From a virus: DNA of 64,000 nucleotides. A program made the translations under genes and the position numbers. The stretch covers positions 43,771 to 107,770 of IMG/VR virus record IMGVR_UViG_3300033273_000460; one strand, written 5' to 3'. Below the pieces are notes generated by a model. It saw only the letters and a program-made list of their open reading frames with translations. It was not told the DNA's origin and made no database searches. Shown here piece after piece: positions 33,804-59,847 of this stretch (position 1 is its first letter; the number at the start of each line of letters is the position of its first letter).

Positions 33804-34118
33804 ATGGAAAATTTAGAACAATTTGCAAAGCAACGTCTTGACTGGAATCGTCAACGACTAACACTGCACGAATCACAACAGGCAAGATTGACAGTACCAC
33901 ACAATGGTGGACTGTTCACTGTAGACATGACACTGTTGGTGTATTTGCGTACATCAACTGTTGACACTTGCATACTAGTAGACAGTTATGGAAATCCTGT
34001 GCAAGTGGATGTGCAACAACTGCTAGAACTGTGCGAACAGCGTTGGCAGGAAGTTCTCAATGATTGGCACAATCAATATCAAGAACTCAAACGCATAAGA
34101 AAGGTAGAACAATTATGA
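33804..34118 (+). CDS. Hypothetical protein (possible fibre-assembly factor)
   Basis: 104-aa ORF directly after the promoter; ATGA coupling to the next gene. Confidence 0.7.
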   Translation: MENLEQFAKQRLDWNRQRLTLHESQQARLTVPHNGGLFTVDMTLLVYLRTSTVDTCILVDSYGNPVQVDVQQLLELCEQRWQEVLNDWHNQYQELKRIRKVEQL

Positions 34119-34294
34119 GTGATGGACCATTTACATCAGAATTTGATATAGATCTAGAAGGTGTGGTAAGACGTGAATTAACTACATATCGTTATGTAGA
34201 CGGTATGATGCGTATGGAAACTGTTACAAGAGTATACACTGGTAATGACTATAACGACAGTAGTGCAAGTATTCCACTACCGGAGATCAAATAA
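34115..34294 (+). CDS. Small hypothetical protein (59 aa, MSDGPFTSEF...)
   Basis: ATGA overlap with the upstream stop supports a start at 34115 rather than 34064. Confidence 0.7.
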   Translation: MSDGPFTSEFDIDLEGVVRRELTTYRYVDGMMRMETVTRVYTGNDYNDSSASIPLPEIK

Positions 34295-34461
34295 TGGAAC
34301 CAGTAGATCCTAGCAAAAAACATTTTTATATCAGTATGGTAAAAAGTGCTATACGCATTTGTGCTGGCGGAGTCTTGTGCTTTATGGGCAATGATTTCTT
34401 AATTGTTACTGGTGCGCTCATAATTGCAGCAGAAGTATTAGGCATAGCGGAGGAACTGTGA
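34294..34461 (+). CDS. Small membrane protein (55 aa)
   Basis: Not in the ORF track: MEPVDPSKKHFYISMVKSAIRICAGGVLCFMGNDFLIVTGALIIAAEVLGIAEEL; TAATG and GTGA coupling at its ends; two hydrophobic segments. Confidence 0.75.
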   Translation: MEPVDPSKKHFYISMVKSAIRICAGGVLCFMGNDFLIVTGALIIAAEVLGIAEEL

Positions 34462-35240
34462 GCAAAGGATGTCTACTGTTAGCAACCAAACATGAGTCAA
34501 TTGATTATATTGGCATGGCCAAACTTGCGGCTGCACTGGTAGAAAAACATCTCAACATACACACTCACATACACATTGGCGAACAAGTAGAAGGCAATGT
34601 GCGATCGTTTCGTTGGGAAGATGGTACTGTAGAAAACGTGCAATGGTATAACAGTGATAGGCCATGTGCATTTGATATTTCTCCTTTTGAGGAAACACTG
34701 CTTGTAGATGTTGATTATCTCACATTTAATAACAGTCTAGCAGGTGTGTTTGGTAGTGACAATGAGTTCTTGTGTTATGACCGTGCTTGGGATGTCACGC
34801 AAACAGGCACACTCAACAACGAAACCTTTATGACACGCAATGGTCTGCCCATGTTGTGGGCAACTGTGATATACTTTCGTAAAACAGAACTAGCACACAA
34901 CATATTTGAAACTATGAAGATGATACAAAATTCATGGGGATACTATAGTAAACTTTATGGATTTATGGGAGGAAAATATCGCAATGATTTTGCTCTTACA
35001 ATAGCACACCAATTAATGAATGGATATACCAACAACACATGCACATTTGATCATGCTCTTGCAACACTGGGTACAGAAGATACAGTGTATGGTGTGCGTG
35101 ACAATCAACTGTTGATACGCTATAGACATGGTGTAGAACAAAATGCACTACGCCTACAAGATACAAATCTACACTGCATGAACAAACGTTGTTTGCAGGA
35201 TGAACAAATACTAGAAGGACTGTGGAAACTTGCAGCCTAA
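34458..35240 (+). CDS. GT-A-fold glycosyltransferase-like protein
   Basis: ISPFEETLLVDVDYL (DxD), WATVIYFRK, YRNDFALTIA, HCMNK. Confidence 0.6.
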   Translation: MSKGCLLLATKHESIDYIGMAKLAAALVEKHLNIHTHIHIGEQVEGNVRSFRWEDGTVENVQWYNSDRPCAFDISPFEETLLVDVDYLTFNNSLAGVFGSDNEFLCYDRAWDVTQTGTLNNETFMTRNGLPMLWATVIYFRKTELAHNIFETMKMIQNSWGYYSKLYGFMGGKYRNDFALTIAHQLMNGYTNNTCTFDHALATLGTEDTVYGVRDNQLLIRYRHGVEQNALRLQDTNLHCMNKRCLQDEQILEGLWKLAA

Positions 35241-36045
35241 AAACGGACAGGGCTTTTTAACCTTTGCACACAACACACCAGATGTTGATTATGTCAACAT
35301 GGCATATCTGTTGGCATTGAGCATAAAGCGCAGTTGCAGTATCAACAACTTCAGTGTTGTAGTTACAAAAGGCACAATGTTAACAGATGCACAACGTGAT
35401 GTATTTGATCATGTGATAGAAATACCTACCACACCTCTATTCTACAGCGAGTGCCTTGCTTGGAACTTGACACCCTACAAGGAAACATTTAAACTAGAAT
35501 GTGACATGTTGGTTCCGCGCAGCATTGACCATTGGTGGAGTGCATGTAGACTCAGTGATGTAGTGTTAACCACATGTGTTAGAAACTACAAAGGAGAGAT
35601 TAGTGACAACAGGTTTTACAGGCGTTATTTTGATGCCAACAATTTGGTTGATGCTTATAATGGGTGTGTGTATTTTCGTTTCTCACAAGATAGCAAAACG
35701 TTTTTTGATACAGCACAATCTGTTTATCAAAACTGGGATCTATATCGCGACAGGGTGCTGGTTGGTAGTAACTATCCTAGTGCTGACACAGATGTTTGTT
35801 TTGGTGTTACCGCAGCACTTTTGGATATATTTTCCTGTACTCTGCCATTAGACTTTCCAACTTTTACACACATGAAAGGTGCGATAAACGGCTGGAAATC
35901 ACACATGGACTGGCGTGATGCAGTGCAATGGCACATTGATGATGAACACAATTTGTTTGTTGGCGGAGTTGCACAACAGTATCCTTTCCACTACTACCAA
36001 AAAGACTTTTGTACACCTGAATTGATTGCACACTATGAGTTTTAA
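35230..36045 (+). CDS. GT-A-fold glycosyltransferase-like protein, paralog of 34458
   Basis: LTPYKETFKLECDML (ExD in place of DxD), YNGCVYFR, DTDVCF, FTHMK. Confidence 0.6.
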   Translation: MQPKNGQGFLTFAHNTPDVDYVNMAYLLALSIKRSCSINNFSVVVTKGTMLTDAQRDVFDHVIEIPTTPLFYSECLAWNLTPYKETFKLECDMLVPRSIDHWWSACRLSDVVLTTCVRNYKGEISDNRFYRRYFDANNLVDAYNGCVYFRFSQDSKTFFDTAQSVYQNWDLYRDRVLVGSNYPSADTDVCFGVTAALLDIFSCTLPLDFPTFTHMKGAINGWKSHMDWRDAVQWHIDDEHNLFVGGVAQQYPFHYYQKDFCTPELIAHYEF

Positions 36046-36313
36046 CAACAAATACGGACTAGAATTTAGAATAACCTACAACGATGCAGGAGAACTAACC
36101 AGCGACAAAATTACTGCACGACCAGAAGAGGTTTGGGAACAGTCATATATAGTTGTAGAAGAACATTTTAGCAAACGACCTGGTCACAGAGTTGTAGATG
36201 GTTCTCTCGTAGAAATTGATACCAGCATACACATATATCACAAACCTGCACGTGGTATATTGATCAACAACAATCCATATTTTTGCAAAGAGGAAATCAA
36301 TGACGCAAGTTGA
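36035..36313 (+). CDS. Hypothetical protein
   Basis: ORF overlapping both neighbours; ATG at 36035. Confidence 0.6.
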   Translation: MSFNNKYGLEFRITYNDAGELTSDKITARPEEVWEQSYIVVEEHFSKRPGHRVVDGSLVEIDTSIHIYHKPARGILINNNPYFCKEEINDAS

Positions 36314-37205
36314 TGTAGCAGATCTAGACTGTATATTTCTCACCTATTATGAACCCAAGCGAGAAGAGTTTTGGGCACAGATCAGCAACATGGTGCCGTG
36401 GGCAAAACGTGTTGATGGTGTTAAAGGATCAGATGCAGCACACAAAGCAGCAGCAGATGCCAGCGACACAGAACGTTTTGTGTTAATTGATGGAGACAAT
36501 TTGCCTGAAGAACGTTTCTTCAATTTGGTTCTTGACATACCAGAAAACATGGCAGACTGTGTGTTCCGTTGGAAAGGACGCAATGACATCAACGGATTGA
36601 TGTATGGCAATGGTGGACTAAGTTGTTGGACTAGAGAGTTTGTCAACAACATGCGCACACACGAAAACACAGATGGCACAGATGCTACACTGGTAGAGTT
36701 TTGTTTTGATAACAAATATCTTCCAATGAACAATTGCTACAGCACCAGTTACCCCAACGGTGATGAGTATCATGCATGGCGTGCAGGATTTAGAGAAGGT
36801 GTTAAACTGTGTTTGGACAGAGGTGCAAAACCTCCAGTGGACAACTTTCCGTGGAACCTGCACCATGTCAACAGAGATCACTTGAGCATTTGGCATAACA
36901 TTGGACGTGATGCGGACTATGGCGAACATGCTATCCAAGGTGCACGTTATGGCACATACAAACTTATGTGTACAGAGTGGGATTGGACTGAAACACAAGA
37001 CTTTGATAAACTAAAAAACATCTACGATGAATGGCAGCAAGACAACTGGGATCAAACCATACTAGCAGCACGTCTTGGATTGGAGATACACGAATACACT
37101 GCAGAACAAAGTGCATTCTTTAAACATCACATGCAACGCACCTATCACGAACATGATGCAATGACCACAGAAATTGAGCTGATACGAAAGGCAGAAGGTT
37201 GGTAA
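36300..37205 (+). CDS. GT-A-like glycosyltransferase (phage family)
   Basis: RVDGVKGSDAAHKAAA...FVLIDGDN (DxD), YGNGG, AWRAGFREGVKL; paralogous to the C-terminal domain of 56614. Confidence 0.62.
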   Translation: MTQVDVADLDCIFLTYYEPKREEFWAQISNMVPWAKRVDGVKGSDAAHKAAADASDTERFVLIDGDNLPEERFFNLVLDIPENMADCVFRWKGRNDINGLMYGNGGLSCWTREFVNNMRTHENTDGTDATLVEFCFDNKYLPMNNCYSTSYPNGDEYHAWRAGFREGVKLCLDRGAKPPVDNFPWNLHHVNRDHLSIWHNIGRDADYGEHAIQGARYGTYKLMCTEWDWTETQDFDKLKNIYDEWQQDNWDQTILAARLGLEIHEYTAEQSAFFKHHMQRTYHEHDAMTTEIELIRKAEGW

Positions 37206-38113
37206 TTGATTTAACAAAGTACTGTGGTAGTGTTAGACATTGGAATACACACCTACTAGCATTAGAAATTGCACAAAATAAAAATAGATCAATTGAATTT
37301 GATCTAGCACACGAGCATTGGGATGTTGATGTTAATGGAATACACAGTGTAATACAGGACTGTTTTGTTAATTTGAATATCAAACAACCTATAGTATATG
37401 CACATGACCGCAGACGTTCAATCTCTAATTATTACAAATACATGCTAGATTGGAAGTATAATCCTTGTACCAAAATTGGATATGGTCAATTTTTTGGCAG
37501 ACCCACATATGAAAGATTGTATTGTCATCACAAACATCTCAATTGGCGCCATCGTGCGTTAGGTGTTGCAACTTTTCATTTCTGCCCAGATGGTTTAAAT
37601 GCACACAACTGTGATTTTGTAGAATTTCTTTGGGAACAACCCGAAAAATGGGCTAGTCTTAAAAGTTCTGGCTTGCCTTATGCAGATATAGAATGTAAAT
37701 ACGATGAACACGGTGCCCTTGCTAACCACGGTGTTGATCATACCGATTATGATAATTTGAAACAAGCATATAAAAAAATATGTGCAGAAGTTGTGTGTGA
37801 AACTAACACCCAGGGTAAAACTTATTTTATAACCGAAAAAACACTGAGACCAATGCTAAATGGTTGTATACCTTTGATAATATCAAATGCAGGATATGAG
37901 AGCTATCTAAAAAGTTTAGGTTTTGACCTGTTTGATGATGTGTTAGACAAAAGTTATGATAAGAATACAGGTGCAATAAGGATTGAAAAAGTTTATCATG
38001 TTCTCGAAGATATACTTGTAAACAAAGACAAGTTGTGGTTGAAACAGTTATCCAACAGATTACAAAACAATATAGAACGAGCAACAAGTTACATACAGGA
38101 AAATATTGTATGA
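37199..38113 (+). CDS. GT-B/GT10(fucosyltransferase)-like protein, paralog 1
   Basis: EVVCET...FITEKTLRPM...LKSLGFDLFDDVLDKSYD. Confidence 0.55.
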   Translation: MVIDLTKYCGSVRHWNTHLLALEIAQNKNRSIEFDLAHEHWDVDVNGIHSVIQDCFVNLNIKQPIVYAHDRRRSISNYYKYMLDWKYNPCTKIGYGQFFGRPTYERLYCHHKHLNWRHRALGVATFHFCPDGLNAHNCDFVEFLWEQPEKWASLKSSGLPYADIECKYDEHGALANHGVDHTDYDNLKQAYKKICAEVVCETNTQGKTYFITEKTLRPMLNGCIPLIISNAGYESYLKSLGFDLFDDVLDKSYDKNTGAIRIEKVYHVLEDILVNKDKLWLKQLSNRLQNNIERATSYIQENIV

Positions 38114-39069
38114 AGTGTGGAGCATTTGATAGCGGATTGTCAATACATCCAGATGGAAAAGTAAGTCCTTGTTGTGTGTTTGATCACAATTATTTTCAAG
38201 ACTTGCATGAGTTGGATTGGAATGATCCATGGTTAGATTTACGTGACGGCAGAGGTTGCGCCGCTTGCAAATTTAAAGGTAAAACATATCGAGACAGTTT
38301 CGATGATTTCTTAAATGACAGTTATAAAGTTAGACATCTTGACATTAGAAATAACAACTTGTGTAATTTAGAATGCAGTATATGCAACAGCTATTACAGT
38401 AGTAAATGGGCTGAAAGATTAGGCGAGCAAAAATTTATAAGCACAGAATTTAATATAGATTTATCAAGTGTAGTGTCTATATATTTTGCAGGCGGTGAGC
38501 CATTGTTAAATCCTACACATTGGAAAATACTAGACAGTATACCTCATCCAGAAAGAGTGTCTTTGCAATACAGTACCAATGGTTCTGTTACAAGAAAAAT
38601 TCAAAAGTATTGGCCAAAATTTAGAGATGTATTAGTGTGCGCAAGTATGGATGCATATGGTCAGCTTGGTGAATATTTAAGGTATGGAACAGACTGGAAA
38701 AAATTTGAATCTAATCTAGCCATAATGTCAGAGTATGCAACTGTGAAAATTGTACCTACAGTCAGTGTTTTAAACATTTTTCATCTTGAAAGTTTGGTTA
38801 ATTGGAGTAAGTATGAAATAGAATGGAACTGTTTAACAGGTCCAGATTATTTGTGTGTAAGTGTGCTTCCAACAGAATTAAAAAAACAAATACCGTATGT
38901 ACCAGATGGTGTTGATCAACTACAACAACTTTTAGAAATAGATAGTAGTTATTTATTTCCGCATACAATGAGCTTTGTGCTATTACAGGACAAGATAAAA
39001 GGTACAGATGTTTGGAGTTATCTGCCTTTTGAAAAATATGCAATACAGGAGTATATGCAAAAGAAATGA
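38110..39069 (+). CDS. Radical SAM enzyme with N-terminal twitch/SPASM-like module (1)
   Basis: CNLECSIC, YFAGGEP; N-terminal C...DGKVSPCC...CAAC; ATGA start at 38110. Confidence 0.88.
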   Translation: MKCGAFDSGLSIHPDGKVSPCCVFDHNYFQDLHELDWNDPWLDLRDGRGCAACKFKGKTYRDSFDDFLNDSYKVRHLDIRNNNLCNLECSICNSYYSSKWAERLGEQKFISTEFNIDLSSVVSIYFAGGEPLLNPTHWKILDSIPHPERVSLQYSTNGSVTRKIQKYWPKFRDVLVCASMDAYGQLGEYLRYGTDWKKFESNLAIMSEYATVKIVPTVSVLNIFHLESLVNWSKYEIEWNCLTGPDYLCVSVLPTELKKQIPYVPDGVDQLQQLLEIDSSYLFPHTMSFVLLQDKIKGTDVWSYLPFEKYAIQEYMQKK

Positions 39070-40427
39070 GTGATTATTACAAAGATGCACAGGTTGCACA
39101 ACAACGGTTAGCAGGCATAAGTGACAGTTTCTGTTTGGCCAAATGGAAACAGGTAAGCCTACATTTGACCACAGGACACACCAACAGTTGTTATCATCCT
39201 CCACTGCATCGTATACCCATAGAACCACTTGCTGACAATCCAAGTGCATTGCACAACACTGAACACAAAAAGCAGAGCCGCCGTGAAATGATGGCAGGTG
39301 TAAAGTGCAGTGATTGTCAATACTGTTGGAACATTGAAGCACAAGGCAACATGAGTGACCGTCACTATCGCAGTGGTGAGCGTTGGGCTATGGAAAGTTT
39401 TGAGGATATTGTAAACAATCCACAGGCAGATGTCAACCCTAGTTATGTTGAAGTTAACTTTAACCATGCATGCAATCTAAAGTGCAGTTATTGCAGTCCA
39501 CAGTTTAGCAGCACATGGGAACAGGAAACAAAAGAACATGGTGCATGGCCTACCAGCACACCACACAATGATCCAAAGCACTTTACAGGTGAACGGCGTC
39601 CTATTCCCAACAGAGAGCACAACCCATACAGAGAAGCATTCTGGCGTTGGTGGCCAGACCTGTATCCAGACCTCAAACACTTTCGCATGACAGGCGGTGA
39701 ACCCTCAATGGATCCCAACACCTATCGTGTGTTTGACTATGTGCTGGAAAATCCAAAAAGTGATCTACACCTAAACACCACCAGTAACTTTAGTGTGGAC
39801 CAACGTGTGTGGGAAAAATACAAAGGCTATGTGCAACGGCTGTGCAAAGGAGAACAAATTGAACACTTTATGCAGTTTGTTAGTTTAGACACATGGGGTG
39901 CCCAAGCAGAATACATACGACATGGACTAGACTTTGAACTAGCGATAAATAGATGTGAAGAGTTTGTTCGCGATGTCCCCTATCGTAGCAGTCTAACGTT
40001 CATTATAACAATGAATAATTTGAGTATACTTTCTCTCAAAAAACTATTAGAATATATTGTACACTTACGCAAAACCTACACAGACACATACCAACGTGTA
40101 TGGTTTGATACTCCACTGTTGTACACTCCAGACTGGCAAAGCATGCAGATACTGCCTATGGAGTTTCAAATAGTAATGCAAGAATGTATACGCTACATGG
40201 AAGACAACTTGCACGACATGCATGGATTCAAGGACTACGAAGTGTTAAAAATGAAGCGTGATTTAGATTGGATGCTACAAGGCACCACAGATGTAGAACG
40301 CAAACGTGGAGACTTCTATAGATTCTTTAGTGAACATGATCGCAGACGCGGCACAAACTTTTTAGAGACATTTCCTGAAATGGAACAGTTTTGGAGACAG
40401 TGTGAATATTTTAGTAACAGGCAGTGA
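39066..40427 (+). CDS. Radical SAM enzyme with N-terminal twitch-like module (2)
   Basis: CNLKCSYC, MTGGEP; N-terminal FCLAKW...SCYHPP...CQYC. Confidence 0.9.
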   Translation: MSDYYKDAQVAQQRLAGISDSFCLAKWKQVSLHLTTGHTNSCYHPPLHRIPIEPLADNPSALHNTEHKKQSRREMMAGVKCSDCQYCWNIEAQGNMSDRHYRSGERWAMESFEDIVNNPQADVNPSYVEVNFNHACNLKCSYCSPQFSSTWEQETKEHGAWPTSTPHNDPKHFTGERRPIPNREHNPYREAFWRWWPDLYPDLKHFRMTGGEPSMDPNTYRVFDYVLENPKSDLHLNTTSNFSVDQRVWEKYKGYVQRLCKGEQIEHFMQFVSLDTWGAQAEYIRHGLDFELAINRCEEFVRDVPYRSSLTFIITMNNLSILSLKKLLEYIVHLRKTYTDTYQRVWFDTPLLYTPDWQSMQILPMEFQIVMQECIRYMEDNLHDMHGFKDYEVLKMKRDLDWMLQGTTDVERKRGDFYRFFSEHDRRRGTNFLETFPEMEQFWRQCEYFSNRQ

Positions 40428-41220
40428 TGGTTTTCTCGGCAAACACACAGTACAATATTTGCGCAGCAAAGGTCACACTGTAACTGCACATAATACAGAT
40501 GTGTTAGATGGATTACCAGAACACACATATGATGTAGTATTTCATTTTGCTGCTTATGTAGGCGGTCGCAAAGGAATTGAAAATAATACCTGGCTAGTTG
40601 CTAAAAATATTGAAATAGACAGAACTGTTTTTGAATGGGCAGAAACACACTGTGGGAAGATAGTATATCCTAGTAGTTGTGCCGCATATCCTTTGTGGAC
40701 ACAAACAAGCACAGATATTACAATGAAAGAAAATTTGCCATTGGATAGTGTGTATGATATTTATGGTCTAAGCAAAGTAACTGCTGAACGTATGTTAAGG
40801 TACACTAAAATAACAAGTAACATAGTGCGCATTTTTAGCAGTTATGGGCCAGATCAAACATTAGATTATCCTTTGCCTAGCATCATTGCAAGAGCAAAGC
40901 AAGGTGAATGTAGTGTATGGGGTACAGGCACACAGACTAGAGATTGGGTATACATTGATGATGTATTGCGTGTGTTTGAATATTTGCTTACAAATGACGT
41001 AGGTGTATTAAATATTGGCACAGGCGTTGCTACTAGTTTTCACGACTTAGCACAAACTATATATCGTTGTATACACGGAATTACTATACCTGTTAGCGTA
41101 ACCGCATCCGAACCCGAAGGCGCAAGCCATAGATGTGCAGATATTACACTGTTACAGAAACTAGGGTTAGAACCAAATGTTACCTTAGAACAAGGAATAT
41201 ACAGATGCTTAAAACAATAG
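40402..41220 (+). CDS. NAD-dependent NDP-sugar epimerase/dehydratase (extended SDR)
   Basis: ILVTGSDGFLG (GxxGxxG), HFAA, SS, YGLSK (YxxxK), GTGTQTRDWVYIDD. Confidence 0.9.
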   Translation: MNILVTGSDGFLGKHTVQYLRSKGHTVTAHNTDVLDGLPEHTYDVVFHFAAYVGGRKGIENNTWLVAKNIEIDRTVFEWAETHCGKIVYPSSCAAYPLWTQTSTDITMKENLPLDSVYDIYGLSKVTAERMLRYTKITSNIVRIFSSYGPDQTLDYPLPSIIARAKQGECSVWGTGTQTRDWVYIDDVLRVFEYLLTNDVGVLNIGTGVATSFHDLAQTIYRCIHGITIPVSVTASEPEGASHRCADITLLQKLGLEPNVTLEQGIYRCLKQ

Positions 41221-42200
41221 GATTAACATTTCCTAAATCTAGTCAATGGCATACAGATCAAATTGCACTTATGCAAAGCCTAGGAACACAAATTGAGGAC
41301 AAGTTTCCAGATGCAAATAATGTTTTGATCAACATGACATGGTTTGGGCCACAGTTTGAAAATAATGAATACGATAAGTTTTTAGAGTATGCCAGTACTA
41401 CCCAGATAGATAATCTTTTTTTGCTTGCAAGTGAAGATCCTTGTTTTTTTAATCGAGAGGAAACTTTTAATTTTATTGCACTGAGTGAAGCTGTTAACAG
41501 TTATTTGTTAGGTCACTTTGATAGCGATTACAACTTTAACTTTCATAATCTTGTACTTCCTAAATATTTTTATCCCTATACTGAAGACCAAATCATAATG
41601 AAAGATCCTAAATTTGTTTTTATTTGTTACAACAGAAAGCCTAGGCCTCATAGGACAAAGTTGGTTGATCTATTAGATAGTAGTTATCTAAGTAGCTATG
41701 GTGTTATAACACTAGGAGATAACCGTACACTAGGAGAATCTGTTGACGATATTGGTGTAGAAAACCAATGGTGGCCAGAGGAGTATGGTATACCACATGA
41801 CATACACAGTTTAGGTAGACTAGATGTATGGCAAAATCACTTTTTAACAATAGTCAGTGAAACAGACTATGAAGACATGTTATGGACATTTGTTACCGAA
41901 AAAACTTGGAAACCTATAATAGGATTAAGACCTTTTGTAATCAATGGCCAGACTGCAGTTTATAAATGGTTAACTGATAATGGGTTTCGTACATTCAATA
42001 AGTATTGGAGCCACATTGATTTAGAAACATGCAATATAGATGAAATTCATCCTAATATTTGCAGTGTTATTGAATTTCTCAAGACTCAAGATCTAAAACA
42101 AATGTACATTGACATGTTGCCAGATTTACGTTATAATAAACAACGCTTTTATGAATTCAGTAGCGAGCAAAAACATAAGATGGAGAATTTATTTGGATAA
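41205..42200 (+). CDS. GT-B/GT10-like protein, paralog 2
   Basis: FICYNRKPRPHR...TIVSET...FVTEKTWKPI..LRPF...GFRTF; start ATG 41205 after CAAGGA. Confidence 0.55.
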   Translation: MLKTIGLTFPKSSQWHTDQIALMQSLGTQIEDKFPDANNVLINMTWFGPQFENNEYDKFLEYASTTQIDNLFLLASEDPCFFNREETFNFIALSEAVNSYLLGHFDSDYNFNFHNLVLPKYFYPYTEDQIIMKDPKFVFICYNRKPRPHRTKLVDLLDSSYLSSYGVITLGDNRTLGESVDDIGVENQWWPEEYGIPHDIHSLGRLDVWQNHFLTIVSETDYEDMLWTFVTEKTWKPIIGLRPFVINGQTAVYKWLTDNGFRTFNKYWSHIDLETCNIDEIHPNICSVIEFLKTQDLKQMYIDMLPDLRYNKQRFYEFSSEQKHKMENLFG

Positions 42201-51149: not shown

Positions 51150-51159
51150 ACGAGGATCA

Positions 51160-52302: not shown

Positions 52303-52403
52303 TTACATTTATAAAAAAGATTGTAAACAAAATCAAACTGGAGATAAGATATCGCAAGCGTCTAAAAGAATTGCGCAAGCGTGATCCTTTTATATACAAA
52401 TGA
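52299..52403 (+). CDS. 34-aa basic microprotein MITFIKKIVNKIKLEIRYRKRLKELRKRDPFIYK
   Basis: Not in the ORF track; ATGA overlaps at both ends fill the glyA-52400 gap exactly. Confidence 0.75.
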   Translation: MITFIKKIVNKIKLEIRYRKRLKELRKRDPFIYK

Positions 52404-52642
52404 TAGAAATCAAAATTGGTATATTCAATCTACTCAAAAAGGTCATAGGCGGAAGCAGCCTACAACTTGCAGTTGTTTATACCATTGGACACATACTGAT
52501 TGCAATGACCTGCAATAGAATGATAACTGGTGCAGACTGGGCACTAGCAGGTGCAGATGCACTCATTGAACCAATCATTAATGGTTTCTGGTTTTACATA
52601 CTACACAAAGGCTATAAAGTTTATAGCAGTAAACAAAAATGA
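52400..52642 (+). CDS. Small membrane protein, DUF2061-like
   Basis: YTIGHILIAMT...ITGA..ALAGADALIEPIINGFWFYILHK. Confidence 0.65.
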   Translation: MIEIKIGIFNLLKKVIGGSSLQLAVVYTIGHILIAMTCNRMITGADWALAGADALIEPIINGFWFYILHKGYKVYSSKQK

Positions 52643-53271
52643 AACTGGTTACGTTTGGTGACAGTTGGCCTGCAGGTGAAGAATTAAATCCAGGAGAAAA
52701 ACCTTTTGGTCAAATCATTGCAGAAATATTAACATTTGATTTTGCAAATTATGCACAGTCTGCTACAAGCATACCTCACATGATAATACAACTTCAACAA
52801 TGTATTAAAGACGATCCTGGCGGTCATCCAATGGCATTGTTTTGTATAACCAGTAGCAGTAGAAGCATGTATTACGACGATGATTATCTGGAAAATATGG
52901 GGTGGCGTGAAATACACATTAGCAACGAAGATACTGCTAGTGAAAGTTATTATCGCAATTTGTATAGTGATCAACTGGCTCATTTTCATGCCAATGTGTA
53001 CCTGCTTGCACTGCAACAAATTTGCCAGAAACACAGTATCAACGATAGATATGTTTTTTGTTGGGAAAATTTTGATTTAATGCCTGGTATTGATACAAGT
53101 AAAATATATCCTCGCACCCTTGCTGACATTATAGGTGTTGGGTTGCCTTTGGGTAGAAAAGATGTATTAATTGACAGCAATCATGAATGTGTTAAACCAA
53201 ACGAAAATCATCCCAATCAAAAAGGACATCAAAAAATTGCTGATGAACTAGCACGATGGATACAAAAATGA
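52639..53271 (+). CDS. SGNH/GDSL-like protein
   Basis: LVTFGDSWPAG block I; NYA..ATS; NENHPNQKGHQKIA block V. Confidence 0.6.
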   Translation: MKLVTFGDSWPAGEELNPGEKPFGQIIAEILTFDFANYAQSATSIPHMIIQLQQCIKDDPGGHPMALFCITSSSRSMYYDDDYLENMGWREIHISNEDTASESYYRNLYSDQLAHFHANVYLLALQQICQKHSINDRYVFCWENFDLMPGIDTSKIYPRTLADIIGVGLPLGRKDVLIDSNHECVKPNENHPNQKGHQKIADELARWIQK

Positions 53272-54740
53272 TATTAGGACTTAGTGCTGGATTTCATGAC
53301 GCTGGTGCAACACTTGTAAACACCAACGGCGATATACTGTTTGCAGGTCATGCAGAACGTTACAGCGGCATAAAGAATGATGCTAACCTCAATGATGCAC
53401 TGTTAGAAGATGCATGCAGTTATGGCAAACCTACCAGTATAGCATGGTACGAAAACCATTGGCGTAAACGCACACGACAGATCTACAGTGGCGAATGGCG
53501 CAAAGCACTAGACTTTAGCACAACACCACAAGCACTGTGTTCCAAACACAACTTACAGGCACCTATAACCAGTTATGGTCATCACATGTGCCACGCAGCA
53601 GCAGGATTCCAAACAAGTCCTTTTGAACGGTGTAAAGTACTAGTTGTGGACGCCATTGGCGAATGGGACACTGTTAGTGTTTGGGATGCATGGTATGATG
53701 ATGATGGGTATGCACGTTATAAAAAGATTTGGAGTCAACGTTATCCGCACAGCATAGGACTATACTACAGTGCAGTCACACACTACGTTGGGCTCAAGCC
53801 TATGGAAGATGAATACATACTGATGGGCATGGCAGCATATGGCAAAGGATATCTCACTGCATACCAAGAAAACCTAAAACTGTGGAGTGACGATAGAAAT
53901 ATAAAACTTGTGGACAATTTACACACAGGCATTGACGAAGAATGGTTCAGTGGCACAGGACTCAATGAATATGATATTGCAGCAGGTGCACAAAAAGTTG
54001 TTGAAAAACTGTTAATAGAATTGGTGCAACGTTGGTGCGGTCTCGACGAGAATTTGGTGTTTATGGGAGGTGTTGCACTCAACTGTGTTGCCAACAGCCA
54101 AATAAGATTTTATTGCAACGACCTATGGATCATGCCTAATCCAGGTGATTGTGGTAGCAGTTTGGGTGCTGCAGCACTACAGTACGGCAAAAAACTCAAC
54201 TGGCAAGGTCCTTATTTGGGACATGACATGGGCAACAAGTATCCTACAGATGAACTACTGGGAGAATTACAAACAAATAAAATTGTAGGTGTTGCTACAG
54301 GTCGTGCAGAGTTTGGACCGCGAGCATTGGGCACTAGAAGTTTGTTAGCAGATCCACGTGGCAATGACATCAAAGACCGTGTAAACGAAATAAAACGCAG
54401 ACAAAAGTTTAGACCATTTGCTCCAATGGTGTTAGAAGAACATGCCAGTAGATATTTTGATATGCATAGAGAAATAAATCCATACATGCAAGGCACATAC
54501 AAATGTCTAGCACCAGAACTGTTTCCTGCTATTGTGCATGCAGACAATACCAGCAGAGTACAAACAGTAGGACGTAACGATCATCCAGGCGTGAGAGAAC
54601 TGTTAGAAAAGTGGTATGTACTCACAGATTGCCCTATTTTGTTAAATACTAGTCTGAATATTAAAGGCGAACCTATGGTTAACAACAGAGCAGATGCTGA
54701 TAGGTTTGAACAGCGTTATGGAGTACGAGTGTGTTCATAG
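53256..54740 (+). CDS. O-carbamoyltransferase (NodU/CmcH/TobZ family)
   Basis: GFHDAGA..AGHAER, HHMCHAAAG, DAIGE, MGMAAYG, GGVALNC, GDCG, EFGPRALG.RS, FRPFAP, LLNTSLN. The start is probably ATG 53268 (ATGA overlap). Confidence 0.95.
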   Translation: MDTKMILGLSAGFHDAGATLVNTNGDILFAGHAERYSGIKNDANLNDALLEDACSYGKPTSIAWYENHWRKRTRQIYSGEWRKALDFSTTPQALCSKHNLQAPITSYGHHMCHAAAGFQTSPFERCKVLVVDAIGEWDTVSVWDAWYDDDGYARYKKIWSQRYPHSIGLYYSAVTHYVGLKPMEDEYILMGMAAYGKGYLTAYQENLKLWSDDRNIKLVDNLHTGIDEEWFSGTGLNEYDIAAGAQKVVEKLLIELVQRWCGLDENLVFMGGVALNCVANSQIRFYCNDLWIMPNPGDCGSSLGAAALQYGKKLNWQGPYLGHDMGNKYPTDELLGELQTNKIVGVATGRAEFGPRALGTRSLLADPRGNDIKDRVNEIKRRQKFRPFAPMVLEEHASRYFDMHREINPYMQGTYKCLAPELFPAIVHADNTSRVQTVGRNDHPGVRELLEKWYVLTDCPILLNTSLNIKGEPMVNNRADADRFEQRYGVRVCS

Positions 54741-55267
54741 ACCAATTACACCCTAGTTTTTATCACATCAAAGATGTGTTCACTGACCAGCAACTTACAG
54801 AATTAAGAAGTTTGTACTGGGACAAACACACATGGCAAGAATTAGCAGACGAATGGGATAACATACGCCATAAAAAAACATTAGATTTTGAGATAGACGG
54901 ATTGGAAGAAATACAAAATTTTATCGAAGACAGATTACAAAAACCAGTATATCCAAATAGTCCTCAATTATGGTTTGATTATCCTGGTTACATAGATCGT
55001 TTACACACAAGTACTGGTCCTAATATACATGTGGCTGCAAAAATATATCTTATTCACAGTTCAAATACACAACAAGGCACCTACTTTATAGATGACGTCA
55101 CTGATCATGAAAAGAGGAGTCTATACCATATTGATTATGTTGTGAATACAGGATATGTAATGTTTGGGCCTACACAATTTAGCCATGGCATGAGGCATCC
55201 TGTAACAGATCATCGTATGAGTCTTTATCAAAGTTATAGGCTCAATTCAATTGCAGCCAACGAGTAG
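54731..55267 (+). CDS. 2OG-Fe(II) oxygenase-like (DSBH) protein with an atypical facial triad
   Basis: LWFDYPGY..RLHTS...IYL...GTYF...NTGYVM...SHGM...RMSLY; HxD replaced by HTS. Confidence 0.5.
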   Translation: MFIDQLHPSFYHIKDVFTDQQLTELRSLYWDKHTWQELADEWDNIRHKKTLDFEIDGLEEIQNFIEDRLQKPVYPNSPQLWFDYPGYIDRLHTSTGPNIHVAAKIYLIHSSNTQQGTYFIDDVTDHEKRSLYHIDYVVNTGYVMFGPTQFSHGMRHPVTDHRMSLYQSYRLNSIAANE

Positions 55268-55574
55268 TGATGTGCAACTAAAAGACAAAGTAATAGTCGC
55301 ACTTAGAGATGTGTATGATCCTGAAATCAGTATCAACGTGTATGACCTTGGGCTAATATATAACATTGAAGTAACAGGCACACATGTACATGTTCAGCAC
55401 TCACTTACCAGCATGATGTGTCCATTTGCAGATCAAATCTGTGAGGACATTACCAATGCTGTCAAAGGCGTAGATGGTGTAGAAACTGTAGAGCGAGAAT
55501 TGGTTTGGGAGCCGGAGTTTGGTCCAGAAATGGTACCAGAGGATACTAAATTAGCTTTGGGTTGGGATTTTTAA
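55251..55574 (+). CDS. sufT: Fe-S cluster maturation factor, DUF59/SufT/MIP18 family
   Basis: ALRDVYDPEISINVYDLGLIY...LTSMMCPFA...LVWEP (DPE-x-T-x3-C signature). Confidence 0.88.
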   Translation: MQPTSSDVQLKDKVIVALRDVYDPEISINVYDLGLIYNIEVTGTHVHVQHSLTSMMCPFADQICEDITNAVKGVDGVETVERELVWEPEFGPEMVPEDTKLALGWDF

Positions 55575-56615
55575 TTCAATATCCTTAAACAATTGATTGA
55601 CAATGTTGTCTAGTGTGCGTTGCATATAGAACCATTCATAGTTGTGTTCTAGTGTGCTTCGTATGCTCTTTGTTTTGATCATGCTTTGTATGTTTTCAAG
55701 TGGCTGGTCTGCTAAATCTTTTATCACATCAAATGCTGCACTGTATCTTGCATCATGATCCTCTAAATTGTCATAGTGCTCGCTCCAGTGTGTGCCAAAT
55801 GTTTTGAACCCCATTTGTTTGAGAGTATCCAGTGTTTTACATGTTCCAAACACTATAAAAGGTTGCATGAGCACCATTGGTTTGAATATCTTTTCTGTAA
55901 AAAAGTTTTCGTTTTGATCAAATACTGTTTCCATACAAATGTGTATACCACAAGTGTTTGCAGTTTCAACGTCTACGCTGTGGCTAGCATTGGGATGAGT
56001 TTTATCATCTATTACCAATGGTAAAATTTTTTGTATGTCTTCTCTGCCAGTGATGCTTTCAAAACTTTGTTGTGTAAGCGGATCGTGTGCAGGAAAACTG
56101 TATGCTGCAGTATCAAGTATGTTGTTGTCATAAAAGTCTTGCACCAGTTTACAACGATGAGGCCTATTTTCTGCAAACAATCTGTTGTAACACACAAAAT
56201 GTTTTTCAAGTGTGCGTTCGCTTGGACGCATCAACAGTGGGTGGTTTCTATATCCTCTGTACCAATCTCTTGCTGCAACATAGTGGTGTTGATAGTGTAC
56301 AACACTCCAACCGTATTTTTCAACATAACTGTCTAAGTTTTCGCCGTACTTTTCTGCAGTAATAAGTATTACTGTTGATCCCCAATCATTAAACATTTCA
56401 GCAAAATGATCTAGCCAACGTATTCTTGACCAAATTGGTTCTTGATCGTATAATAATAACACAGTCTTAGGAAATTCATAAGCACTGTCAAACACAGTAT
56501 CTTCTGGATGTTCACTGCCATATGGATAAGGATATACCACAGCAGGTTCTAAATGGTCATACGTGCGTCTAAACCAAGTGCTGATGGTAGGATAAAAGGT
56601 TTCTAAATTATACAT
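55551..56615 (-). CDS. GT-B/GT10-like protein, paralog 4 (inverted relative to the cluster)
   Basis: FVCYNR...RPHR...ICMET...FFTEKIFKPM..QPF...MGFKTF..WSEHYD. Confidence 0.55.
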   Translation of the reverse strand: MYNLETFYPTISTWFRRTYDHLEPAVVYPYPYGSEHPEDTVFDSAYEFPKTVLLLYDQEPIWSRIRWLDHFAEMFNDWGSTVILITAEKYGENLDSYVEKYGWSVVHYQHHYVAARDWYRGYRNHPLLMRPSERTLEKHFVCYNRLFAENRPHRCKLVQDFYDNNILDTAAYSFPAHDPLTQQSFESITGREDIQKILPLVIDDKTHPNASHSVDVETANTCGIHICMETVFDQNENFFTEKIFKPMVLMQPFIVFGTCKTLDTLKQMGFKTFGTHWSEHYDNLEDHDARYSAAFDVIKDLADQPLENIQSMIKTKSIRSTLEHNYEWFYMQRTLDNIVNQLFKDIELKIPTQS

Positions 56616-58920
56616 GTTTGATGTTTTCTACACAGGTTCTAAGCCAAATTTGTTTGCTCACGAGCAACCTGCTGATTCAATTGAAGCAGCACGACAGCAA
56701 AGTCGCACTGAATACTGTTGGTATTTATGTGGCCAAAATGACTACACAAATTTTCGCTTTGACATGGTGCCTCCACACTGGGAGCATGATCATGTGTACA
56801 CCTGGCCCAGTCAATGGCAACAAGATGGACAAGTGTATCTAACACCCAAACACAATCCAGGTCCTTTACACTACATGAAAGATCAAATGGTAACTAGATT
56901 GCCATGTGAAGATAACTGGCAAATACCTTTGAACATTGACACTGATGCATTTGATTTTAGTTGGCATCCAAACCCAAGTGAAAATTACATTCATGTTTTT
57001 GGAACACAATGGCAACCAGATGGAGGTCCTGAGTATCACACACCGGGTGCCAATGAAATCAAGTACGAAAGTGTACAAAGATCAACAGCGTTAGAAAATT
57101 TAGATCATTGGCGTGTACCTGACAATGCTGATGTTGATGAGTTTGATTTTAGCTGGCACCCTCGAAAGTCAGACATTTACGTTCATGTTTTTGGTAGTAA
57201 ATGGGCAAGACAGGGAGGCCCTGAATATCACACACCTGGTGCTAATGAAATAAAATATGAAAATGCACAAACTGTAAAAAGTAAAATTACCTGCGACGTT
57301 TTTGTTGTAGACCAGTTTAACAAAAACAACAACAAAAGTTTTGACACAGTAAAGACACAAGATGAAAATGCTCGCAAAATTAGAGGTGTAGGCAACTGGG
57401 CCAGCATTATTAAAAAGGCTTGCGAAAACTCTACCAGTGACTTTGTATGGATAGTCAGCAGTGATTATGACTACACAGACTTTGACTTTGGGTGGTATCC
57501 AGAAACTTGGCAAAGCAACATGATACATGTGTTTGGCAGCAAGTTTCAGAAATGGGCCAATGTGTTCCGTGTGCCGCGTTGGGAGTTTCTACGACTGGCA
57601 CCTTGGTTTGAAGATGTAAAAGACTTTCCAGAACTAAACTTTGTTGAGGATCAAACAGTAGAATTGTTTGACGACAACAGAGAAATTGTGTATGTAGACT
57701 TTGGCAATGGCATAGACTTTGCACCTGATTTGGATCACAAAACCACACGCTTCTTTAGCACTTGGTTAGAAACACTTGGTCGCATATGCGAACGCACTGA
57801 CAGCGAGTACATATGGGTTGCAAGCAGTATTTGTGACTATACAAACTTTGACTTTGGATGGGAACCAGAACCGTGGCAGCAAGACATGCTGCATGTGTTT
57901 GCCAGCAATGATCAAAGAGAAGGTGATACATTTTTGGTGCCTGTACAGCGTTTTAAGCAGCAACAGCAACGTCTAGAACTTCTAGGCTGGTTTGACACTG
58001 TAAACTATGTAGAAGGCATTACTGTACCTGCATACAGCTGGCCTGTTGCAGCAAGTGTACACGCTATAACAACAGTCTATGCTTGGTTACTGCGTAATGG
58101 CACACAGACTGTAGACTATACGCCTAGTTTTTGGAAAAAGCCTGATTTACATGTCTTGAACACAAGCGGAAGTGTATCGTTATGCCCAAGAGACAGTAAA
58201 ACACATTTTAAAGAGCAAATGTATGATTACCCATACATATTGCGTCATAATCGCAAAGATATACCAGAAAAAATACTGGATGTTGTATATGTTTCAAACG
58301 GCGAAAAAAATGCCAATTTAAATTGGGAAAGACTTCAAAAACTGTGCCCACGAGCCAAAAGAATTGATGGTGTTAATGGCAGAGCACAAGCATATAAAGC
58401 ATGTGCAGAAGTAAGCGAGACTGAATGGTTTTTAAATGTGTTTGCTAAATGTTGGGTGCACGATGACTTTGACTTTAACTGGCAACCTGATTATCTGCAA
58501 AGCGACAAGCATTATATTTTTAATGCTCATAACACTGTGACCGGATTAACATATGGACACATGGGAATTATTGCTTATCACAAACGATTGGTTTTAGATT
58601 GTGAAACTTGGGGGTTAGACTTTACACTCAGTATGCCACACACTAGTGTACCTATAACAGCAAGCACTGCTGACTATGCAACCACTCCTTATGAAACTTG
58701 GCGCACTGCATTTCGCGAAGCAGTTAAATTAACGCAACAACAAGATCCACAAAGCCAATACAGATTAAATGCATGGCTTAATGTTGGGAATGGAGAGTTT
58801 GGAGAATGGAGTATGAGCGGTGCTCGTGATGCTGTAGACTTTGTAGCTACAGGACAAGATTTACAATTAAGTTTTGAATGGGCTTGGCTCAAAGAAACTT
58901 TTGACAGCCTCTATAACTAA
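56614..58920 (+). CDS. Multi-domain protein made of tandem degenerate GT-A-like modules
   Basis: Recurring S.T...W / FDF.W.P..W....HVF modules; C-terminal domain (RIDGVNGRAQAYKAC, TWRTAFREAVKL) is paralogous to 36300. Confidence 0.6.
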   Translation: MFDVFYTGSKPNLFAHEQPADSIEAARQQSRTEYCWYLCGQNDYTNFRFDMVPPHWEHDHVYTWPSQWQQDGQVYLTPKHNPGPLHYMKDQMVTRLPCEDNWQIPLNIDTDAFDFSWHPNPSENYIHVFGTQWQPDGGPEYHTPGANEIKYESVQRSTALENLDHWRVPDNADVDEFDFSWHPRKSDIYVHVFGSKWARQGGPEYHTPGANEIKYENAQTVKSKITCDVFVVDQFNKNNNKSFDTVKTQDENARKIRGVGNWASIIKKACENSTSDFVWIVSSDYDYTDFDFGWYPETWQSNMIHVFGSKFQKWANVFRVPRWEFLRLAPWFEDVKDFPELNFVEDQTVELFDDNREIVYVDFGNGIDFAPDLDHKTTRFFSTWLETLGRICERTDSEYIWVASSICDYTNFDFGWEPEPWQQDMLHVFASNDQREGDTFLVPVQRFKQQQQRLELLGWFDTVNYVEGITVPAYSWPVAASVHAITTVYAWLLRNGTQTVDYTPSFWKKPDLHVLNTSGSVSLCPRDSKTHFKEQMYDYPYILRHNRKDIPEKILDVVYVSNGEKNANLNWERLQKLCPRAKRIDGVNGRAQAYKACAEVSETEWFLNVFAKCWVHDDFDFNWQPDYLQSDKHYIFNAHNTVTGLTYGHMGIIAYHKRLVLDCETWGLDFTLSMPHTSVPITASTADYATTPYETWRTAFREAVKLTQQQDPQSQYRLNAWLNVGNGEFGEWSMSGARDAVDFVATGQDLQLSFEWAWLKETFDSLYN
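56917..57261 (+). repeat. Intragenic tandem duplication with a 192-nt (64-aa) period
   Basis: W..P.N.D...FDFSWHP....Y.HVFG..W...GGPEYHTPGANEIKYE occurs twice (56917-57069 and 57109-57261); differences in the conserved core are synonymous. Confidence 0.9.
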
Positions 58921-59847
58921 TTCAACTTCTAAATCTGTGGTGTAACTGTCACATGGTAATTGTAAAAAGCGTTCACAGTTGCTTTGCGCCTGCGGCATTT
59001 CAAACAATGGCTTTGCATATGCACGTTTTGTTTGAATAAGATTGTTTGTTAAATGTGTTTCTAGTTCTGCACGTTGATCAGTAGCAATAATAAATTTACT
59101 AACCATTCCTGTAACATCTGTGACGATTTCTACATAGTGTCTTAATTCTTCTATGTATTGTTCTGCAATTTCTCTACGGTGTTTGGTCCAATCGTCAAAG
59201 TGGTCTAGTTTTACTAAACACTCTGCACAGTCGCGTTCGCTCATAATGCTGTTACCGCCTGTGTGTTTGTTTACAACACCGTGCCGTCTCAACTGTCTAA
59301 CACTATGTGCAAGGTCTTCGTCGTTGGTAACAACTGCTCCGCCATTGCCAAAGTTTGGTAAACTTTTTGTAGGATCAAAACTATAACTAGCAAATACACC
59401 TTGTAGAGGTAATCCAAAGTGTTGTGCACCATCTTCGTAGATAGGTACTGTGGTATCTAATTCACTATTGTTTCCAAAAAGTCCAACCCAAACAGCACTG
59501 TGTGTTACACTCTTCCATTCTATACAACCTTTTGAATCAACATCACAAGGTATGATGTTTGTACCTGCTCGGGTGCAACTGTTAGGTGTTGCTACAAAAC
59601 TTTGCGCAGGAACACATACACTTTTTTCTCCAGTAGCTTGCAATCCATACATTAGTGCATCACTACCACTGCCCACAACAACGCAGTGACTTGCGCCACT
59701 GCGTTCTGCTAATGCTTCCTCAAAATGTTTTGTAAAATTTCCTAGCATAACTTGACCGCTGTTTAACACAGCCTGTTGCACAGCATCAAGTTTTTGATAG
59801 AGTTCTTTGTTCAATCTGTTGAGATTGGTTAGGTTTATTTTATTCAT
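58867..59847 (-). CDS. DegT/DnrJ/EryC1/StrS-family PLP aminotransferase (NDP-aminosugar synthesis)
   Basis: GSGSDAL, SFVAT, YEDGAQHFG, SYSFDPTKSLPNFGNGGAV, LRRHG. Confidence 0.9.
   Translation of the reverse strand: MNKINLTNLNRLNKELYQKLDAVQQAVLNSGQVMLGNFTKHFEEALAERSGASHCVVVGSGSDALMYGLQATGEKSVCVPAQSFVATPNSCTRAGTNIIPCDVDSKGCIEWKSVTHSAVWVGLFGNNSELDTTVPIYEDGAQHFGLPLQGVFASYSFDPTKSLPNFGNGGAVVTNDEDLAHSVRQLRRHGVVNKHTGGNSIMSERDCAECLVKLDHFDDWTKHRREIAEQYIEELRHYVEIVTDVTGMVSKFIIATDQRAELETHLTNNLIQTKRAYAKPLFEMPQAQSNCERFLQLPCDSYTTDLEVELVIEAVKSFFEPSPFKT

Follow-up and report, generated by a model that had tools for sequence, protein, structure and literature searches.

In the last 64 kb of the 107,770-bp IMG/VR contig IMGVR_UViG_3300033273_000460 (the window, 64,000 nt, in whose numbering all positions are given), a block at positions 33804-59847 was found to encode six paralogous radical S-adenosylmethionine (SAM) enzymes together with glycosyltransferase (GT)-like proteins, sugar enzymes and an O-carbamoyltransferase accompanied by a microprotein. 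With roughly even confidence, the block is interpreted as an operon, complete in itself, whose soluble cytoplasmic enzymes build and tailor a sugar-bearing molecule. A preceding annotation made from the letters of the DNA (the sequence-only reading) had described the block as one self-supporting system for a heavily modified glycan, and this proposal was here followed up by profile, structure, synteny and literature searches. The coordinates of the features are collected in Table 1.

All six radical SAM enzymes counted in the sequence-only reading were recovered by the model NF033640 (N_Twi_rSAM), each above its curated cut-off of 170 bits, and they share with this family an auxiliary four-cysteine domain located before the CxxxCxxC core. 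The six genes are the only NF033640 matches on the contig, and no match over the cut-off was obtained in 14 control genomes. The CxxxCxxC motif (C160/C164/C167), four N-terminal cysteines (C50/C68/C110/C113) and a GGEP motif are invariant in 6/6 proteins, and therefore all of them look catalytically intact as far as their residues can tell. Moreover, each paralog has a 1:1 ortholog in relatives with 60-87% identity, from which it follows that the duplications are old and that the copies are distinct, each being retained under selection. In sampled bacterial genomes NF033640 proteins mostly occur in 1-3 copies, whereas here six old paralogs are located in one operon. No paper on the reaction of NF033640 was found in the literature searched, where the family is catalogued only. 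The alignment of the six paralogs was too divergent to be used as a genome-scan query, and a scan of genome contigs with a single protein gave no match.

The predicted carbamoyltransferase was likewise confirmed, since both of its domains were matched (E 1e-50 and 1e-39; 137 and 172 bits, both above cut-off) with the first ~117 positions of the N-domain profile unmatched, and its matches in the PDB comprise 7xb6 (E 4e-46), NovN, GdmN and TobZ. Upstream of it, a gene missed in the sequence-only reading encodes a basic microprotein (here called the DPFIY microprotein), which is present in 19/19 related loci covering the region, a distant lineage included, and which in most relatives overlaps the start of the carbamoyltransferase gene. 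Over its last 25 codons 1015 synonymous and 479 non-synonymous differences were counted and 23 third positions vary; this excess of synonymous differences identifies it as a real coding gene. Where bacterial loci contain a carbamoyltransferase together with this radical SAM family, the former is adjoined by a 50-aa DUF5989 (SxtK-type) microprotein (PF19451; 86-87 bits for the members in loci L055, L072 and L079). The bacterial and the phage peptides agree in synteny, in the PFIY tail and in a similar N-terminal (F/W)(L/I)K..(I/L)W motif, but at the position of the transmembrane helix of DUF5989 the helix of the phage peptide is basic. At E <=10 the contig was without a match to the DUF5989 model, and the window had none to the SxtJ model, while a profile-profile comparison of the phage peptide with DUF5989 (hhalign) yielded P of about 0.005 on 33 columns. 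Judged by these sequence features, the DPFIY microprotein is somewhat more probably than not a derivative of the carbamoyltransferase partner DUF5989/SxtK without the transmembrane segment; the alternative is a substrate of the radical SAM enzymes. For saxitoxin, a carbamoylation set sxtI/sxtJ/sxtK/sxtL has been described (PMC2679770), and the module found here resembles it in that an O-carbamoyltransferase is accompanied by a microprotein with a PFIY tail, by a small membrane-like protein and by a GDSL/SGNH hydrolase. The set differs from the present one in its DUF5989 and SxtJ members, whose models are without a window match as stated above, and the rest of the saxitoxin pathway is absent from the window.

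Paralog sets among the window proteins were defined by all-against-all BLASTP. Four GT-A-like genes had been proposed, and this group was borne out by three GT8-like proteins (34458, 35230 and 48259, named by their first position) and by two GT-A/nucleotide-sugar-transferase folds (36300 and the C-terminus of 56614). For the GT8-like set no Pfam match was obtained at E 0.01. The profile A4, which was built from nine sequences of the 35230 family, matched glycogenin-1 over its first 106 positions, and the profiles A3 and A6 gave no matches to PDB sequences. An invariant D84.D86 is found in the 34458 family, with E90.D92 at the aligned place of the 35230 family. The AlphaFold model of 36300 (predicted local distance difference test, pLDDT, 75) had the PBCV-1 capsid glycosyltransferase A64R as its top Foldseek match in the PDB (prob 0.96, E 0.01); GT-A enzymes took most of the top Foldseek rows and viral GT-A enzymes filled the BFVD list. 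In a comparison of this model with 48,161 chains, independent of Foldseek, the best 50 rows all belonged to the nucleotide-diphospho-sugar-transferase superfamily (Z 6.1-8.4).

Four further genes, which had been described as GT10-like, are genuine paralogs according to BLASTP, but their GT10 membership was not upheld, since neither a GT10 model nor a solved GT10 structure was reached with them. In this EK-motif family the R, E, EK and GF residues are invariant and resemble the nucleotide-binding motif of GT10, and its nearest named Atlas clusters are of PF00852, at only 0.80. As for a direct assignment to GT10, no cluster protein matched PF00852 at E <=5, and a PDB match to FucTA seen with a four-sequence profile (E 0.55) disappeared when profiles of 15 and of 64 sequences were used. 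A Pfam match was found in 0/78 members, none of the 286 matches of a word-index search carried one, and a full HMMER search at E <=1e-3 retrieved 12,090 cluster representatives, among them two-copy proteins of 700-1000 aa. Structure and profile searches, which had been suggested as a check, linked the GT8-like proteins to GT8 and placed the GT-A-like proteins in the nucleotide-diphospho-sugar-transferase fold, but did not place the EK-motif proteins.

The transcriptional organization of the block is that of about 30 co-directional genes on the plus strand (33804-55574), after which three more genes, one on the plus and two on the minus strand, extend to 59847. Within the co-directional run, the genes mostly overlap by 4-17 nt (ATGA and similar) or are separated by gaps within 10 nt. 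This near-unbroken coupling and the promoter at 33769-33797 agree with the sequence-only reading, which had placed about 30 genes behind one sigma70 promoter, but a second site with full consensus is located at 42109-42137. Its hexamers fall on the codons of a conserved DMLPDL.YNK protein motif, and the consensus may be a by-product of these codons. The 17-nt spacer of the first promoter is a GC hairpin. In the close relatives L002/L003 (3288), L004 (about 255) and L005 (1662) the hexamers are kept and the stem covaries, with compensatory changes between GGGCC/GGCCC, GGCGC/GCGCC and GGACC/GGTCC. Because the first ATG (33804) is only 7 nt past the -10 box, the mRNA of the first gene may be leaderless; alternatively, the hairpin may act as terminator or insulator. 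The T4 late-promoter motif TATAAATA showed no enrichment (3 found, 3.5 expected), and the sole well-placed copy of TATAAATA (3192-3199) lies 29 nt ahead of the gene that opens a long structural operon and downstream of the divergently oriented gene of a gp55-like late sigma factor. The cluster has its own sigma70-type promoter, apart from the late structural operon, and its adjacency to the fibre genes therefore does not imply co-expression; it is probably a transcription unit of its own, which would be read by the host polymerase.

The cluster was found in 18 IMG/VR loci (L002-L019) and in three contigs binned into bacterial metagenome-assembled genomes (MAGs; L030, L032 and L033). A conserved core comprises the 104-aa protein, two GT8-like proteins, the GT-A-like protein, 5-7 radical SAM enzymes, the 49989-type protein, the DPFIY microprotein and the carbamoyltransferase, while the short-chain dehydrogenase/reductase (SDR) protein, glyA, the DegT protein, the Rossmann protein and most EK-motif genes vary across loci. 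A synteny survey had been named as a further check, and it showed that the genes are not scattered independently, the core order being shared by 20 or more phage loci. The claim of one system accordingly holds for the core, on account of its conserved order and of the 1:1 radical SAM orthologs, but glyA, DegT, SDR and the GT10-like genes are accessories. In the distant lineage L014-L017, six N-twitch enzymes and one short radical SAM protein are accompanied by a B12-type radical SAM enzyme, PhyH, a QueC-like protein, a carbamoyltransferase, DUF6071 and a GT1 enzyme, and the locus adjoins PhoH. The contigs L029-L033, filed under bacterial MAGs, carry the full phage cluster with fibre genes and most likely represent phage DNA that was binned with bacteria, not host genes. 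L030 belongs to the Legionellales MAG PBLX01000002, and L032 and L033 are ctg3 and ctg1 of the Haliscomenobacter MAG JBBAKG01.

Among phages, no near-identical DNA was found in 50,697 records (0 matches), and tblastn with the radical SAM open reading frame (ORF) 44146 (gene 44161) matched only the Vibrio phages K566 and K567, phage RsoM2USA and one marine single-cell virus. The isolate K566 (255 kb; L028, OZ196521.1 161548-168284) has four N-twitch paralogs among hypothetical genes, and a carbamoyltransferase, a DPFIY peptide and homologues of the GT-like proteins of the window were not detected nearby. In the cultured Ralstonia phage RsoM2USA the order of the window is kept (fibre-like, GT8, GT8, GT-A, radical SAM, GT-A), and a carbamoyltransferase with 45% identity is encoded elsewhere in the genome. 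Virion proteins of RsoM2USA have been identified by mass spectrometry (PMC8504454), and the cluster genes adjoin them.

Bacterial homologues of the radical SAM enzyme, with 33-42% identity and usually in 1-3 copies, occur in Bacteroidota, Bdellovibrionota, Elusimicrobiota, Acidobacteriota and others. At L055, a Crocinitomicaceae chromosome, the neighbours are a UDP-sugar dehydrogenase, an SDR epimerase and a carbamoyltransferase with DUF5989, and moreover a UbiA-GT4-SGNH fusion, a sulfotransferase, a GDSL protein, PhyH and a WelO5-like oxygenase; the unassigned proteins of this locus are not homologous to the phage GT-like families. In a Synechococcus genome the homologues adjoin DegT and GT2 genes. 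Among 118 neighbours in 25 bacterial loci, PhyH (8), radical SAM (5), ATP-binding cassette (ABC) transporters (4) and tetratricopeptide repeat proteins (4) were most frequent, followed by few GT2, EryCIII-type and GT1 enzymes. The bacterial neighbour genes thus tie the radical SAM family to the tailoring of carbohydrates or glycosides and not to nucleic acids.

In the preferred interpretation, that of a sugar-tailoring operon, the SDR enzyme, the DegT aminotransferase and the Rossmann protein would adapt nucleoside diphosphate sugars of the host, and an oligosaccharide would be assembled on an acceptor by the GT8-like and GT-A-like transferases, in which the four EK-motif proteins may take part. 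The six N-twitch enzymes would each perform one non-redundant radical step on the sugars, for which epimerisation, oxidation to a keto-sugar, deoxygenation and C-C bond formation are candidates, and SufT would help to load both of their Fe-S clusters. Finally, the carbamoyl module of DPFIY microprotein, DUF2061 protein, SGNH hydrolase and carbamoyltransferase would add and trim O-carbamoyl groups, as proposed for sxtI/J/K/L. Virion proteins, e.g. the fibres or a Thr/Ser-rich protein of 4512 aa, are the likeliest single acceptor, a choice which is made tentatively and with clearly less than even confidence; it is favoured by the order fibre, GT, GT, GT, radical SAM, kept even in RsoM2USA, and by the structural match to a virus capsid glycosyltransferase. 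Several observations weigh against these assignments. The fold of 36300 is indistinguishable from that of a sugar nucleotidyltransferase, IspD/MobA-type and GT-A enzymes being tied at Z 7-9. The four EK-motif proteins and the 49989-type protein were left without an assignment after profile, Pfam and Atlas searches, and product, acceptor and reaction of the radical SAM family are all absent from the searched literature. Among solved structures, the radical SAM core is nearest in sequence to TvgB (E 2e-11) and SkfB, which are SPASM enzymes that modify peptides. In addition, an early-type promoter fits the decoration of virions less well than early functions, and the conserved adjacency to fibre genes may reflect shared ancestry only.

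Three other acceptors were weighed in detail, and a further, different acceptor is given a small share comparable to that of the host envelope. Remodelling of the host envelope, in which the O-chain, capsule or another surface glycan would be altered, e.g. in order to block superinfection, is considered unlikely. The GT8 family includes many lipopolysaccharide transferases, the early-type sigma70 promoters fit an early function, and the UbiA-GT-SGNH fusion at L055 suggests a lipid-linked product. Cassettes of GT8 and radical SAM genes near fibre genes have also been read as O-chain modification (PMC7029224). However, neither an initiating phosphoglycosyltransferase nor a flippase or transporter, a polymerase, a ligase or a large membrane protein was found in the cluster: no cluster protein matched such a Pfam family, and a hydropathy scan of the region returned only four weak hydrophobic segments of 19 residues (one in the DUF2061 protein) and no multi-pass membrane protein. 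Furthermore, conservation across very different phages would demand a common host acceptor.

The radical SAM enzymes could instead mature a peptide (DPFIY or another one), or a cyclitol or sugar scaffold could become part of an aminoglycoside-like glycoside, the product then being glycosylated and carbamoylated; this is regarded as rather less likely again. Apart from the kinship with TvgB and SkfB, which are maturases of RiPPs (peptides made by ribosomes and modified after translation), a twitch domain matching BtrN (E 3e-5) speaks for it, as do the near-invariant 34-aa peptide with its conserved C-terminal core and the EryCIII-type GTs, ABC transporters and PhyH among the bacterial neighbours. 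The joint occurrence of PhyH, B12-radical SAM, carbamoyltransferase and GT1 in L014-L017 points in the same direction, a combination that mirrors aminoglycoside tailoring sets. BtrN, TvgB, SkfB and anSME share the radical SAM core and a four-cysteine auxiliary cluster domain with the phage enzymes, but the auxiliary domain of the latter is N-terminal instead of C-terminal, identity is low and the RiPP recognition element is lacking. Such an element, a protease, an exporter and a scaffold synthase (e.g. 2-deoxy-scyllo-inosose synthase) were not detected among the cluster proteins with Pfam/NCBIfam. Moreover, the DPFIY microprotein resembles a carbamoyltransferase partner in its N-terminal W motif, PFIY tail and synteny, the four paralogs of K566 occur without it, and RsoM2USA has one radical SAM gene adjoining GT genes (a locus that was not searched for the peptide). 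DNA hypermodification, in which the transferases and the carbamoyltransferase would decorate hydroxymethylated pyrimidines and thereby evade restriction, is held to be improbable. It has precedents in a phage carbamoyltransferase that makes 5-carbamoyloxymethylcytosine from 5-hydroxymethylcytosine (5hmC; PMC8670742) and in phage GT-A and GT-B enzymes which, with partner epimerases, glycosylate 5hmC DNA (bioRxiv 10.1101/2023.12.21.572611), and the early promoter, the abutting thyX gene and glyA inside the cluster would be compatible with it. DNA-type carbamoyltransferases, however, co-occur with thymidylate-synthase homologues, and those of unmodified contigs are flanked by unrelated genes, e.g. 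group 1 glycosyltransferases (PMC8670742). A ThyA-like hydroxymethylase, a TET/JBP dioxygenase or a C5-methyltransferase was found in none of five related records (about 555 kb; fragments 23-73% complete), and the ThyA of two relatives is canonical (350 bits, PCH...DMFLGVPFNIASY with the Asn kept). In addition, glyA is not conserved across loci and the bacterial homologue clusters suggest substrates other than DNA.

Table 1. Genes and promoters of the block and the evidence for their assignment (EK-motif consensus R...E...(T/S)EKxxKP...GF).
Position	Strand	Feature	Evidence or remark
33769-33797	+	sigma70-type promoter TTGACA-17-TGnTATAAT	12/12 consensus; marks operon start
33804-34118	+	104-aa conserved small protein, phrog_6694	
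34114-34294	+	possible 59-aa ORF, ATGA-coupled	conservation not seen
34458-35240	+	GT8-like GT-A glycosyltransferase, invariant DxD	A6 vs A4, hhalign 97%
35230-36045	+	GT8-like glycosyltransferase, glycogenin-like N-terminal half	profile A4 vs PDB glycogenin-1, E 1.6e-4
36035-36313	+	small protein, ~92 aa	conserved only in L006, L009
36300-37205	+	core transferase, GT-A/nucleotide-sugar-transferase fold, invariant DGD (D64-G-D66)	AlphaFold2 + Foldseek
37199-38113	+	EK-motif family, paralog 1 (GT10-like in the sequence-only reading)	BLASTP
38110-39069	+	radical SAM 1, short N-twitch form	NF033640, 181 bits
39066-40427	+	radical SAM 2, subtype with C.AKW...SC.HP	NF033640, 319 bits; 86% ortholog in relatives
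40402-41220	+	NAD-dependent sugar epimerase/dehydratase (SDR), accessory	Pfam E 2e-33; among related loci only L004, L007
41205-42200 (ORF from 41133)	+	EK-motif family, paralog 2	BLASTP
42109-42137	+	second sigma70 consensus TTGACA-17-TATAAT	12/12; inside 3' end of gene 41205-42200; also perfect in L004
42151-42855	+	~234-aa protein (sulfotransferase-like in the sequence-only reading)	without relatives in related loci
42845-44164	+	radical SAM 3	NF033640, 298 bits
44161-45471	+	radical SAM 4	NF033640, 400 bits; >7,000 homologues
45464-46636	+	radical SAM 5	NF033640, 327 bits
46626-47603 (ORF from 46512)	+	EK-motif family, paralog 3	BLASTP
47600-48262	+	Rossmann NAD(P)-binding protein, weak match	NAD_binding_10 E 6e-5, below cut-off
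48259-48825	+	short paralog of GT8-like 35230	BLASTP E 3e-6
48809-50074	+	radical SAM 6	NF033640, 291 bits
50061-51149 (ORF 49989-51149)	+	49989-type core conserved protein	many invariant His/Glu/Cys/Trp
51163-52302	+	serine hydroxymethyltransferase (glyA), accessory	E 4e-148; absent from related loci
52299-52403	+	34-aa basic microprotein ending RKRDPFIYK	ATGA-coupled both sides; in apparent 97-nt gap after glyA
52400-52642	+	80-aa DUF2061 small membrane-like protein	
52639-53271	+	SGNH/GDSL-like hydrolase, FGDS...HPNxxGH	weak Pfam GDSL, E 0.09
53268-54740	+	O-carbamoyltransferase, NodU/TobZ/GdmN/SxtI type, core gene	Carbam_trans_N + Carbam_trans_C
54731-55267	+	178-aa protein (2-oxoglutarate-oxygenase-like in the sequence-only reading)	
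55251-55574	+	SufT/DUF59-type Fe-S assembly protein	FeS_assembly_P E 1.5e-19
55551-56615	-	EK-motif family, paralog 4	BLASTP
56614-58920	+	768-aa protein; residues 555-768 = paralog of 36300 GT-A-like domain	BLASTP
58867-59847	-	DegT/DnrJ/EryC1 sugar aminotransferase, accessory	E 2e-46

Among the remaining genes, the expected DegT aminotransferase and the support genes SufT and GlyA were recovered with strong matches, and one of the two anticipated Rossmann/SDR enzymes, the SDR protein, was equally clear, while the Rossmann protein stayed below cut-off. Only one of two predicted SGNH-like proteins was retained, on account of its GDS...HP..GH pattern and a weak GDSL match. The labels sulfotransferase-like (42151-42855) and 2-oxoglutarate-oxygenase-like (54731-55267) received no Pfam support. 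The model of the 49989-type protein (AlphaFold2, pLDDT 77) had no Foldseek match, and PDB profile and Atlas searches gave no assignment; a cyclophilin-like barrel was considered for it and rejected, the best Z in VIA (8.1) being at noise level. At the end of the block, the genes 55551-56615 (-) and 56614-58920 (+) diverge from a shared CATG (56613-56616), and their 3' ends overlap the convergent neighbours by 24 and 54 nt (55551-55574 and 58867-58920).

From the CheckV completeness of the contig, 31%, a genome size of about 350 kb follows. Located 5' of the cluster are genes for an SbcD-like nuclease, a gp55-type late sigma factor, baseplate hub and wedge proteins, the 4512-aa protein and fibre-like proteins, and the gp6-like wedge protein shares 35-36% identity with its counterparts in Agrobacterium phage Atu_ph07, Sinorhizobium phage Phosso and Rak2-like jumbo phages; the contig is therefore assigned to an uncultured T4-related jumbo myovirus. 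The 4512-aa protein, in which Thr (9.9%), Asp, Val, Ser and Asn are abundant, is encoded by a single ORF (14175-27713, +) lying between the genes of the baseplate wedge and of the fibre-like proteins. It may represent a surface fibre and as such a candidate glycan acceptor, and a DPFIY-like motif was not found in it. The fibre-like proteins 27743-30622 and 31340-32794 have a C-terminal region of about 130 aa in common (50% identical), possibly a receptor-binding or chaperone-binding module. Directly downstream of the cluster and outside the block, a ThyX gene is located at 59854-60507 (-), likewise in L006/L009; two relatives carry canonical ThyA at this place (G001:31603-32511 and G003:24560-25465), which looks like a non-orthologous replacement.

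The closest described counterpart is the 'host recognition cluster' of pelagimyophages and cyanomyophages (Zaragoza-Solas et al. 2020, PMC7029224), which is also a variable island near the tail-fibre genes of T4-like aquatic myophages and contains GT8-type genes, sugar genes and radical SAM cassettes. That report gives neither the anatomy of a core of radical SAM enzymes, carbamoyltransferase and microprotein nor a test, and the present phage differs from pelagimyophages in being a jumbo phage of about 350 kb with Atu_ph07 and Rak2-like phages as its nearest relatives (35% in gp6). The sequence-only reading had stated that no characterised phage pathway has such a composition; in view of these cassettes and of the catalogued family NF033640 this is too broad, but it holds for product and reaction in the literature searched. 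Virion glycosylation is known from PBCV-1, where A64R, the best PDB match of the 36300 model, acts on the major capsid protein, and from actinophages, which have virion glycosyltransferases and whose galactosyltransferases appear in the BFVD list of 36300; as in the present block, the enzymes are soluble and adjoin structural genes. No sequence-level kinship to these systems was found, however, and they are without radical SAM enzymes or a carbamoyltransferase.

More than 7,000 members of the radical SAM family are detectable, and the EK-motif family, which is without a Pfam model or name, comprises about 12,000 cluster representatives, both families being concentrated in abundant aquatic giant phages. 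The identity of the product would define a new radical sugar chemistry and would reveal whether custom glycans are used by large phages to cover their particles, hosts or DNA, a point of consequence for host range, competition between phages and evasion of defence. Since the cultured phage RsoM2USA carries a minimal core, this question can be addressed at the bench. A more specific proposal, put forward as a speculative one, is that the N-twitch paralogs perform an undescribed radical editing of carbohydrates, i.e. several distinct C-H functionalisations on one oligosaccharide, and that the phage places the resulting carbamoylated and highly edited glycan on its own fibres or giant surface protein. 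If true, this would be a bacteriophage counterpart of the fibril glycosylation of giant viruses, achieved by a chemistry that is new to glycan pathways.

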